Assembly (NCBI GenBank): GCA_038891095.1
Contig: JAWAEV010000001.1
Coordinates: 132,468-196,467, forward strand
Direction of reading: 5' to 3'
Length of the DNA stretch: 64,000 nucleotides
Source: Candidatus Altiarchaeota archaeon
GTDB lineage: Archaea > Altiarchaeota > Altiarchaeia > IMC4 > QMZM01
Shown here: positions 21,841 to 22,797 of the stretch, in pieces
Layout of the letters: the number at the start of each line of letters is the position of its first letter
Position numbering within the stretch: the first letter of the stretch is position 1
Notes under the pieces: generated by a model
Seen by the model: only the letters and a program-made list of their open reading frames with translations
Database searches by the model: none
What the model was told of the DNA's origin: nothing
Made by a program: the position numbers and the translations under genes

Positions 21841-21913
21841 TGGGACCGTGGAGATTTGAACTCCAGTAACCAGCACCCCAAGCTGGTAGGATCCCAGGCT
21901 ACCTCACGGTCCC
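21841..21913 (-). tRNA. tRNA-Pro(GGG)
   Basis: GGGACCG/CGGTCCC acceptor; CCAGC-TTGGGGT-GCTGG anticodon arm; TTCAAAT T-loop; no encoded CCA. Confidence 0.95.
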
Positions 21914-21965
21914 AGTTTTCTTTTTTCATCAACCTTTTTCTCTTTTGAAAAAGAAAAGATTAAAA
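21914..21965 (-). repeat. tRNA-associated hairpin element, copy C (Ala-Pro spacer)
   Basis: AATCTTTTCTTTTTCAAAAGAGAAAAAGGTTGATGAAAAAAGAAAA; same architecture as the Ala intron and the Ser trailer. Confidence 0.6.
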
Positions 21966-22108
21966 TGGACCCGTCGGGATTTGAACCCGAGGCCTCTCCC
22001 ACTTTGTAGCTTTTTATTTTCTTTCTCTTTCGCCAACATCTCTCTTTCTTCTTAAGAAAGAGAAAGGCTATGCCAAGGGAGCAATCTACCAGACTGATCT
22101 ACGGGCCC
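21966..22108 (-). tRNA. tRNA-Ala(GGC) with 69-nt intron at canonical 37/38 position (intron 22002-22070)
   Basis: GGGCCCG/CGGGTCC acceptor with G3:U70; CTCCC-TTGGCA^T-GGGAG anticodon arm after removing 22002-22070; GGTTCAAATCC. Confidence 0.93.
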
Positions 22109-22137
22109 ATTTAAATTAATTCCACCATAAAAATAAA

Positions 22138-22470
22138 TTATAGCATTTCTTTAATTTCAGATATTTTTTTCTTTTCAATTTGTTCCCTTATAATTGCCTT
22201 TATAACTAAATCATCAGTCAACCCACTTCTATTTGAAATTTCTTTCAAAATTTTATATGTTTTATCATGCATCTCAAATGAAACTATTTTGCCTTCTCTT
22301 GAGATTGTTGTCTCTGGTAGGTAATCTAATGTAACTTCAGAATCTTTTGCTTTAGCACATATAAAATTTTCTAATATCTCACTCTCAGTAAATTCTTTAT
22401 ATTTCTTCTTTTCTTTGTTTAAGAACTCCATTTCCTCTTTGGATAGAAAAACGAGAACTATTCTTGTCAT
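22138..22470 (-). CDS. Small protein with two putative ribbon-helix-helix (CopG-like) units
   Basis: RIVLVFLSKEEMEFL...ESEILENFI and KIVSFEMHDKTYKILKEIS...DDLVIKAIIRE beta-alpha-alpha patterns. Confidence 0.5.
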   Translation of the reverse strand: MTRIVLVFLSKEEMEFLNKEKKKYKEFTESEILENFICAKAKDSEVTLDYLPETTISREGKIVSFEMHDKTYKILKEISNRSGLTDDLVIKAIIREQIEKKKISEIKEML

Positions 22471-22651
22471 TATTATTCTTTTAAGTTTCCTAAAATAAAA
22501 GGAATAACATAAGTAGCGTAACAAACAAGCTATAATATTCTTAGAGAGCTCTCTTATTTTTAAAGTAAAGAAGAGATTAGCAGAGTGGATTTAGAACCAA
22601 CCTTTTTAAATTGATCAAATTATCTACCGGTCAACTAAATTCTTATTCATG

Positions 22652-22710
22652 TAATTTTTCTTTCTCTTTCGTGAACGTTTCTATTTCTTTTTCTAAAAAA
22701 GAGAAAGGTT
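22652..22710 (-). repeat. tRNA-associated hairpin element, copy B (directly 3' of tRNA-Ser)
   Basis: AACCTTTCTCTTTTTTAGAAAAAGAAATAGAAACGTTCACGAAAGAGAAAGAAAA; about 45/55 identity to the tRNA-Ala intron by hand alignment. Confidence 0.8.
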
Positions 22711-22797
22711 CGCCGAGGTTGGGATTTGAACCCAAGCCCCCCAGTTGGAGGACAAGCTTAGCAGGCTTGCGCGTTAACCGGACTCCGCCACCTCGGC
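22711..22797 (-). tRNA. tRNA-Ser(GCT)
   Basis: GCCGAGG/CCTCGGC acceptor, G73; CAAGC-CTGCTAA-GCTTG; long variable arm; GGTTCAAATCC. Confidence 0.95.

Follow-up and report, generated by a model that had tools for sequence, protein, structure and literature searches.

A structured three-segment repeat in tRNA introns, tRNA trailers and intergenic DNA of an Altiarchaeota archaeon

We analyzed a stretch of 64,000 nucleotides (the window) from a Candidatus Altiarchaeota archaeon (assembly GCA_038891095.1, contig JAWAEV010000001.1, positions 132,468 to 196,467), in which a cluster of three tRNA genes on the minus strand carries three copies, here called A, B and C, of a short repeated element. These copies are members of an extensive repeat family of this Altiarchaeota-type order, whose structured elements measure about 45-55 nt. 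The cluster opens with tRNA-Ser(GCT), which lacks an intron and has its discriminator G at 22711 (window 22711..22797, minus; 61.5 bits with the Rfam tRNA model, and called by ARAGORN). Copy B lies in the 3' trailer of this gene (window 22661..22712, minus; C1:155128-155179); its outer helix begins at the discriminator itself, and its linker is of the GTTCACG type. Next comes tRNA-Ala(GGC), read from the sequence as a whole gene with a G3:U70 pair (window 22108..21966, minus) and composed of exon 1 (tRNA positions 1-37, window 22071..22108), a 69-nt intron at the canonical 37/38 position (window 22002..22070) that holds copy A, and exon 2 (tRNA positions 38-73, window 21966..22001). Copy C is a weaker element filling the 51-nt spacer that serves as Ala trailer and Pro leader (window 21917..21963, minus; C1:154384-154430), and is followed by tRNA-Pro(GGG) (window 21841..21913, minus; 51.5 bits with the Rfam tRNA model). 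A first-pass annotation had singled out the locus, and its coordinates and quoted sequences are correct.

The tRNA-Ala(GGC) gene is real, as its exons make a complete tRNA and are near-identical to the intronless tRNA-Ala(TGC) at C1:67545-67618; removal of the intron restores a 7-nt anticodon loop. Within the intron, the pyrimidine arm of copy A (window 22054..22067, minus) pairs with its Watson-Crick partner, the first purine arm (window 22039..22050, minus), across an AAG hairpin loop (window 22051-22053, minus) in the minimum-energy fold of the pre-tRNA. A linker of the TGTTGGC type, also found in the relatives' loci L038 and L039, contains the 3' strand of the outer helix (window 22032..22038, minus) and leads to a second purine tract (window 22017..22031, minus) that mirrors the first, with a longest exact match of 10 nt in mirror and 8 nt in direct reading. 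The last 15 nt of the intron (window 22002..22016, minus) form a 3' tail that lies outside the repeat and is peculiar to this tRNA, as judged by eye and from orthologous introns. By eye, GCT in this tail pairs with intron nucleotides 2-4, a following stretch pairs with nucleotides 32-34 of the anticodon loop, and the end forms the 3' bulge. The resulting layout resembles the bulge-helix-bulge (BHB) motif, with 3-nt bulges CAT and AGT (each divided before the T), a central helix of 3/4 pairs and closing strands AGC/GCT, and is absent from the minimum-energy fold.

Copies A and B are far more alike than chance would make them. In a BLASTN search of the whole 958,546-base genome at word size 7, copy A matched copy B with 53.6 bits (E 2.4e-9) and its runner-up with 31.0 bits; the two copies are identical at 43/53 positions with a single 2-nt gap, in line with the hand alignment of about 45/55 in the first-pass annotation. 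In 10 shuffled genomes (60-nt blocks) the best scores were 26.5-33.7 bits for copy A and up to 36.5 bits for copy B, and no match equaled that of the A-B pair. To describe the family we made a covariance model in two rounds. MAFFT alignments were dropped as its basis, their stems being out of register, and a model seeded by two sequences, R1, proved too narrow, missing the Ser trailer and recovering only the hairpin core of the Ala intron; it was replaced by model R2, seeded by 10 copies, none of them A, B or C. R2 finds copy A with 37.8 bits (E 1.6e-4), copy B with 34.8 bits (E 6.9e-4) and copy C with 29.3 bits (E 0.0096), all in one common orientation, as first described. The earlier call of a third copy in the Ala-Pro spacer is supported by R2; by BLAST the similarity of copy C is no higher than in shuffled genomes.

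From 5' to 3' the element consists of a 4-bp outer helix, a 1x1 mismatch (chiefly C opposite T or C), a polypyrimidine/polypurine hairpin with a stem of 8-13 bp and a loop of 2-6 nt, a linker, and the second purine tract. The outer helix occurs as GAAC...GTTC, GAGC...GCTT, CAAC...GTTG, CAGC...GCTG or AGAC...GTCT, and the linker as one of two types, TGYTTCAYCCC or YGYTGRCG, the latter in the Ala intron and Ser trailer. The stems are built of T/C facing A/G, with pairs mostly A:T. Across 57 distinct matches from about 30 genomes, aligned by fitting to R2, a fit that favors structure, 99.3% of cells are paired and 12/13 pairs have changed on both sides; none of 500 shuffles reached the observed covariation (0/500), and no slid register approached it. 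G-U pairs are frequent, and G-U is the commonest closing pair of the outer helix.

The second purine tract follows a mirror rule. In 52 non-identical elements (37 from relatives and 15 from this genome), the longest exact match between this tract and the first purine arm was longer in mirror reading in 30, longer in direct reading in 2, and tied in 20. Likewise, when the Ts preceding the first C of the pyrimidine arm and the As preceding the first G of the second tract are counted, the two run lengths are equal in 42/44 elements; where the arms are asymmetric (39 elements), run lengths agree with a mirror in 37 and with a direct repeat in 1, and lengths of 3, 4 and 5 are all represented. The R2 model cannot create this correlation, because it scores the tract columns independently of the stem. 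Nor does DNA copying generate mirror symmetry, as it gives direct or inverted repeats, and we therefore infer that selection maintains the symmetry, acting on a structure where the second tract runs antiparallel along the first purine arm. The third segment, mirroring the second, fits the purine strand in just this way (G on G, A on A). This suggests a fold-back triple helix of the purine motif, with one pyrimidine and two purine segments; the opposite strand would form a pyrimidine-motif triplex of two pyrimidine segments and one purine segment. It had been proposed that either of the purine arms could serve as partner of the pyrimidine arm. This holds for the flagged copies, because their arms are nearly mirror-symmetric (the arm CTTTCTCTTTC reads alike both ways), and as a general rule of the family it was rejected by both mirror tests.

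Model R2 revealed at least 17 sense matches at E<0.01 in this 0.96-Mb genome. Because only 150 first-look candidates per genome were scored (here of about 3,790), all R2 counts are lower bounds. Four matches lie in the introns of tRNA-Asp(GTC), Arg(TCG), Trp(CCA) and Ala(GGC), two in the Ser(GCT) and Ala(GGC) trailers described above, one 125 nt behind tRNA-Ser(TGA), two upstream of tRNA-Met on contig C8, and one in a 64-nt insertion inside the 23S rRNA gene. The seven remaining sites, six intergenic and one in an open reading frame (ORF), comprise two on C7, two at C2:52.4k, and one each at C1:3.7k, C2:92.9k and C3:80.7k, the last being a doubtful match within a 443-aa ORF. Antisense matches reach at most 29 bits and share only the symmetric hairpin. 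The suggestion that the element sits where processing removes RNA is borne out by this distribution: 10 of the 17 matches fall in the 1.7% of the genome that lies within 200 nt of tRNA genes or in the 23S gene, an enrichment with P ~3e-14 against the whole genome and ~3e-4 against non-ORF DNA alone. Strict targeting of tRNA genes is not supported, given the copies in 23S rRNA and between protein genes; copies adjoining protein genes occur in both orientations. At E<0.01 the element occupies 4/14 introns and 2/26 trailers, in addition to the copy 125 nt behind a third tRNA. Inspection of tRNA flanks revealed the same layout behind Ser(TGA), Leu(GAG) and Ile(GAT), in their trailers, and a shorter form of it in the Cys, Met and Thr introns. 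When only perfect pyrimidine/purine hairpins of 8 bp were admitted, a strict scan returned 11 loci, of which 7 are tRNA introns or trailers, 2 the tandem pair on C2 and 2 coding; a relaxed scan returned 93 hairpins, the majority unrelated to tRNAs.

In introns and trailers the element starts close to predicted sites of RNA cleavage. The outer helix begins 0-1 nt past the 5' splice site in introns and 0-4 nt past the discriminator in trailers, and the element-bearing introns of this genome (Ala, Arg, Trp, Asp) are all at 37/38. In the 41-nt tRNA-Met intron the hairpin is, by eye, the helix adjoining the splice-site bulge, and the element hairpin may supply this helix within introns more generally. 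A splicing endonuclease gene is present (PF01974, 113 bits; a 188-aa open frame at C2:41212-41472). It lies 59 nt upstream of tRNA-Trp on the same strand (C2:41531-41739; L075), whose 136-nt intron starts with the element and continues, by eye, with box C/D-like motifs. The copy in the 23S gene (C1:64883-64929, minus, 43.8 bits; gene C1:64455-67373) lies in domain V, where at about model position 2571 the Rfam model expects 2 nt and this gene has 64 (L011:1912-1975). The flanks of this insertion fold into a helix, a 2-nt bulge, a 5-bp helix and a 3-nt bulge, a BHB-like and non-canonical arrangement, and the insertion is therefore probably a mini-intron.

Several loci bear signs of copying. On C8 (C8:2596-2781, plus; L005) a 23-nt start of the tRNA-Met gene, comprising one leader base and positions 1-22 up to the D loop, occurs twice in tandem; each unit joins this 23-nt fragment to a short-stem element and 32 nt of leader with a 93-nt period, and the intact intron-containing tRNA-Met follows. 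The copies joined to a D loop occur as truncated 5' tRNA fragments, not as introns. At C1:3640-3860 (L013) a 59-nt protein-gene end stands on both sides of an 81-nt segment holding an element antisense to the gene; this insertion appears to have altered the C-terminus, as the last residues differ from those of the downstream copy. At C7:44150-44427 (L012) a 95-nt unit, made of a 33-nt gene end and the element, forms a tandem array of at least 2.3 repeats that extends to the very end of the contig. This tandem, and the many matches in relatives that end contigs, indicate that the repeat probably breaks assemblies. On C2 (C2:52435-52549, minus; L009) two copies 68 nt apart stand between co-directional genes, followed by a TATA-like stretch and ATG. 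We considered a two-repeat CRISPR array at this site and rejected it, as there are only two copies and both are members of the intron-element family (cas genes were not searched). Among relatives, G019 has six identical-scoring copies with a period of about 132-135 nt (G019:C185:2232-2941; L041), and the complete genome G023 has a similar tandem together with at least 5 copies, almost identical, at intergenic loci unrelated to one another, each between a stop codon and a promoter-like stretch then ATG. Copies of tRNA ends in the flanks are confined to tRNA-Met on C8 (the 5' fragment, twice) and, weakly, a site behind tRNA-Ile on C4; there are none at copies A, B and C. Because the repeated flank varies in length and always copies the neighbor, a transposase with a fixed stagger does not fit, and the pattern suggests structure-provoked template switching or recombination as the source of the flank duplications.

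The family is widespread in the order. R2 matches at E<=0.01 were found in 29/31 genomes including this one, that is in 28/30 relatives, with 16/18 in the same family and 12/12 in six other families; copies per genome range from 0 to at least 74, many at contig ends. For 26 best-hit loci in relatives, ARAGORN calls a tRNA within 300 nt in 16, on the same strand in 15/16; 7 of the loci lie within called introns and 4 directly adjoin the 3' end of a tRNA. In a species-level genome collection, 29 stretches contain an exact 21-nt linker motif; they are titled Altiarchaeales or Altiarchaeota (11), Methanobacteriota (7), uncultured archaeon (6), Euryarchaeota (3), Micrarchaeota (1) and bacterial metagenome-assembled genome (1); this one motif, representing one subfamily, had no match in the viral collection.

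Synteny of the Ser(GCT)-Ala(GGC)-Pro(GGG)(-Thr) cluster across relatives allows its occupants to be compared. Among 14 Ala(GGC) orthologs called by ARAGORN, 9 are intronless, 2 have a mini-intron and 3 have an element-bearing intron. The mini-introns, in G007 and G014 of one genus, are 13-14 nt long, lack the element and end in CTAA/CCAA, compared with ACAA here; the element-bearing introns elsewhere are those of G028, of another family, which is 48 nt long and holds an element sharing the linker type found here, and of G026, which is 60 nt long and holds a derivative that combines the outer helix and linker found here with a G/C stem. All Ala(GGC) introns found have a tail able to pair with the anticodon-loop TTGG. 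Behind Ala(GGC) we found by eye, in 14 genomes, five pyrimidine/purine elements, three miniature TTT/AAA forms, two cases of the same outer helix with another stem, and four with nothing evident. The trailer of Ser(GCT) contains the element in this genome, a member of the other linker subfamily in G005, and nothing in G014 and G018, where the Ser-Ala spacer is a bare 23 nt. Since the states of the Ala intron, Ala trailer and Ser trailer differ among orthologous clusters, sites are reused and their occupants turn over. An element-bearing intron in another family means that the Ala intron is old or arose repeatedly, and the orthologs do not reveal whether change went toward gain or toward loss. 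Strain contigs X4 over the intron, and X3 and X4 over the Ser trailer, have unchanged element and intron sequence, and no allele without the Ala intron or element was found among contigs of four DNA runs from one study, which cover the region patchily. Two contig joints over the intron were considered as intronless Ala alleles and rejected: with 19 or 25 replacement letters they represent other tRNA-Ala genes (the Ala(TGC) paralog and a foreign Ala(CGC)).

We suggest, with a probability of roughly 0.55, that the element is a non-autonomous repeat resembling REP (repetitive extragenic palindromic) elements and MITEs (miniature inverted-repeat transposable elements), persisting mainly where RNA processing removes it or between genes, and that in tRNA-Ala(GGC) it occupies an intron. 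It would multiply and turn over at the DNA level, perhaps copied by structure-provoked template switching or recombination, and would persist mainly in introns, trailers and spacers that processing cuts away, or in intergenic DNA; in tRNA-Ala(GGC) it would have enlarged, or arrived with, an intron whose putatively BHB-forming tail is peculiar to that tRNA. The likeness to REP elements and MITEs, already raised in the first-pass annotation, fits because copy number varies, orthologous sites gain and lose copies, and near-identical copies are dispersed. Patchy distribution, flank duplications and the occurrence of T-runs in essential introns likewise favor a selfish repeat. The element looks like an occupant of the Ala intron because the tail lies outside the repeat and orthologs span intronless, mini-intron and element-bearing states. 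Several observations weigh against this interpretation. Orientation beside tRNAs is nearly uniformly sense and G-U pairs are frequent; with the conserved hairpin behind Ala(GGC), this suggests constraint at the RNA level, as would be expected of a functional module no less than of a parasite. That hairpin, with the same outer helix at the same site in 10/14 genomes from several families (by eye), looks more like conservation than random insertion. No target duplication of fixed length was found, the flank repeats of 23, 33 and 59 nt copying the neighbor's end, and a search for a Y1 (HUH) transposase with PF01797 gave no match at E<=0.01 in this genome, which is 93.65% complete; no autonomous partner was identified, Y1_Tnp having been the only profile searched among transposases, integrases and reverse transcriptases. 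As for the structure, three copies, those of the 23S insertion, the Ser(TGA) trailer and the G021 Ala trailer, have a distal tract that is a direct Watson-Crick complement and not a mirror. Triplexes of the purine motif are also at their weakest when A/T-rich, and such A/T-rich forms are not well documented for RNA.

The same constraint could instead reflect a module that the host retains for a function in RNA or transcription, a possible but doubtful explanation. A self-contained fold of high stability 3' of the cuts made by tRNase Z and the splicing endonuclease, and between genes, could aid or mark cleavage, prevent misfolding with exons, shield 3' ends, or act as terminator or punctuation. 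The start of the element within a few nucleotides of discriminators and 5' splice sites, the sense orientation in 15/16 tRNA-linked loci, the tolerance of G-U pairs, the tRNA-Met intron hairpin that is just the helix by the splice-site bulge, and the G023 copies between stop codons and promoter-like stretches all suit such a role, as does the GAAC...GTTC hairpin behind Ala(GGC), kept in 10/14 genomes even where its inner stem has changed. Most tRNAs here nevertheless do without the element, and orthologous sites lack any visible substitute, as in the 23-nt Ser-Ala spacers and the 9/14 intronless Ala(GGC) genes. Archaeal transcription is expected to terminate at runs of 5-6 T, so the runs of this length in the pyrimidine arm would stop it within essential introns; the two orientations next to protein genes and the range from 0 to at least 74 copies also sit poorly with a host module. 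A mere chance likeness of low-complexity purine/pyrimidine tracts has in its favor the 31% G+C of the genome and its abundant A/T runs, the many hairpins of the relaxed scan that lie away from tRNAs, and the BLAST result for copy C. This we regard as refuted, and its probability as negligible: the A-B score of 53.6 bits exceeds the best shuffled scores for either copy, R2 recovers all three copies independently, and outer-helix covariation and the mirror rule are seen across 44-57 distinct copies in about 30 genomes.

The first-pass annotation had further read the locus as a direct snapshot of intron birth, in which a trailer or processing hairpin was captured as a new Ala(GGC) intron, or a tRNA-targeting element gave rise to the intron by inserting. 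The closest genomic kin of the Ala intron is indeed a trailer copy and not an intron, 9/14 orthologs are intronless, and the arrival of archaeal tRNA introns is described as an open question in the accessible text of PMC4090602 and of bioRxiv 10.64898/2026.10.13.758758. The comparison with sister genomes speaks the other way, and we consider such a birth very improbable here. An intron needs a tail complementary to the anticodon loop and the element carries none; the element-free mini-introns of G007 and G014 pair with the anticodon loop likewise; an element-bearing intron exists in another family (G028), with a derivative in G026; and the strain contigs are unchanged over both intron and Ser trailer. 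We prefer the non-autonomous repeat that would occupy an intron. A bolder extension, which we hold to be unlikely as a whole, is that the element would form a real three-stranded helix (A.A-U and G.G-C triples) in the transcript or in single-stranded DNA, and that this helix would enable the element to copy itself beside RNA-processing sites and so seed or enlarge BHB introns in tRNA and rRNA genes.

The architecture is reminiscent of the TMECO/ITxF intrastrand triplex repeats of bacteria, whose class II purine motif has a pyrimidine stem, a loop, a purine stem, a loop and a second purine stem (Holder et al., 2015, PMC4666352). As described in the accessible text of that paper, TMECO has G/C-rich 9-nt stems of the CCCTCNCCC type, is proteobacterial and intergenic, and forms a triplex in vitro; the word tRNA appears nowhere in that text. 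The two share the order of arms on one strand with a third segment mirroring the second, and both are short, present in many copies per genome, variable in number among relatives and tied to local sequence variability. The present element differs in being A/T-rich and archaeal, in its co-varying outer helix and conserved linkers, and in its mainly one-oriented residence in the introns and trailers of stable RNAs; a triplex, demonstrated in vitro for TMECO, is predicted here. The element thus has the same architecture as TMECO, as far as sequence can tell, and is not a TMECO member.

Sequence-related tRNA introns have also been described in the Thermoproteales, where they were taken to reflect “large-scale intron transposition” (Fujishima et al., 2010, as summarized in the accessible text of PMC4090602; bioRxiv 10.64898/2026.10.13.758758). 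As in those families, similar introns occur across different tRNAs (here Ala, Arg, Trp and Asp), which in both cases can be read as DNA-level spread limited by the BHB motif. The shared part here is, in contrast, a structured module that also occurs in trailers, leaders, 23S rRNA and intergenic DNA, in another lineage, and in this genome its introns use only the canonical 37/38 position. Compared with bacterial REP/BIME/REPIN elements and MITEs, the element is similarly short, non-coding and hairpin-forming, with near-identical dispersed copies in variable number that lie between co-directional genes and at gene ends. It departs from REP/REPIN in that the RAYT/Y1 transposase was not found in this genome (PF01797), from MITEs in that its flank repeats are 23-59 nt of a gene end and not a target duplication of fixed length, and from both in its third, mirrored arm and its residence in introns. 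Canonical archaeal BHB introns share with the Ala(GGC) intron the 37/38 position and the presence of an endonuclease gene, and by eye the Ala intron would also form two 3-nt bulges flanking a short anticodon-loop helix; they differ in that the interior here is a copy of a genome-wide repeat and the central helix has, by eye, one mismatch. In the literature on Altiarchaeota/DPANN tRNA introns and triple helices, supplementary files being outside the search, we came across no account of a repeat of this kind in the tRNA genes of archaea.

The accessible text of PMC4090602 and of a preprint on Asgard archaea (bioRxiv 10.64898/2026.10.13.758758) treats the arrival and growth of tRNA introns in archaea as an open question. 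Here one defined, structurally constrained repeat spans introns, tRNA trailers, a 23S insertion and intergenic sites, with orthologous loci both with and without it, so that gain and loss at orthologous loci, covariation of the three arms, and splicing with versus without the element become testable. If the triple helix is true, the element would give archaea a rare natural case of selection for a fold-back triplex of the purine motif; if structure-driven copying is true, it would represent a class of mobile repeat in archaea that spreads independently of proteins, and a pool of donors from which tRNA introns could be gained. In practical terms, standard tRNA finders miss or mislabel tRNA genes that bear the element: ARAGORN, with introns allowed, labels tRNA-Ala(GGC) as Phe(aaa), and the Rfam tRNA model fails on Ala(GGC), Arg, Trp and Tyr of the same genome. 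The ARAGORN count stands at 26 tRNA genes, 14 with introns, and includes no Val, no His and none of several other isoacceptors; further disrupted tRNA genes probably remain undetected in the genome.

About 135 nt behind tRNA-Ile(GAT) (C4:1085-1245, minus; L008), a weak copy of the element is followed by a 17-nt near-copy (16/17) of the tRNA's own T-arm, which may be a degenerate duplicate of the tRNA end or else a piece of an undetected tRNA. By eye, the element itself resembles the tRNA T-arm of the GGGGTTCAAATCCCC type, its 5' outer strand with the C-run in antisense and its linker GG-TG-TTTCA-T-CCCC in sense (for example L017:1501-1553), and the element may descend from tRNA 3' ends.

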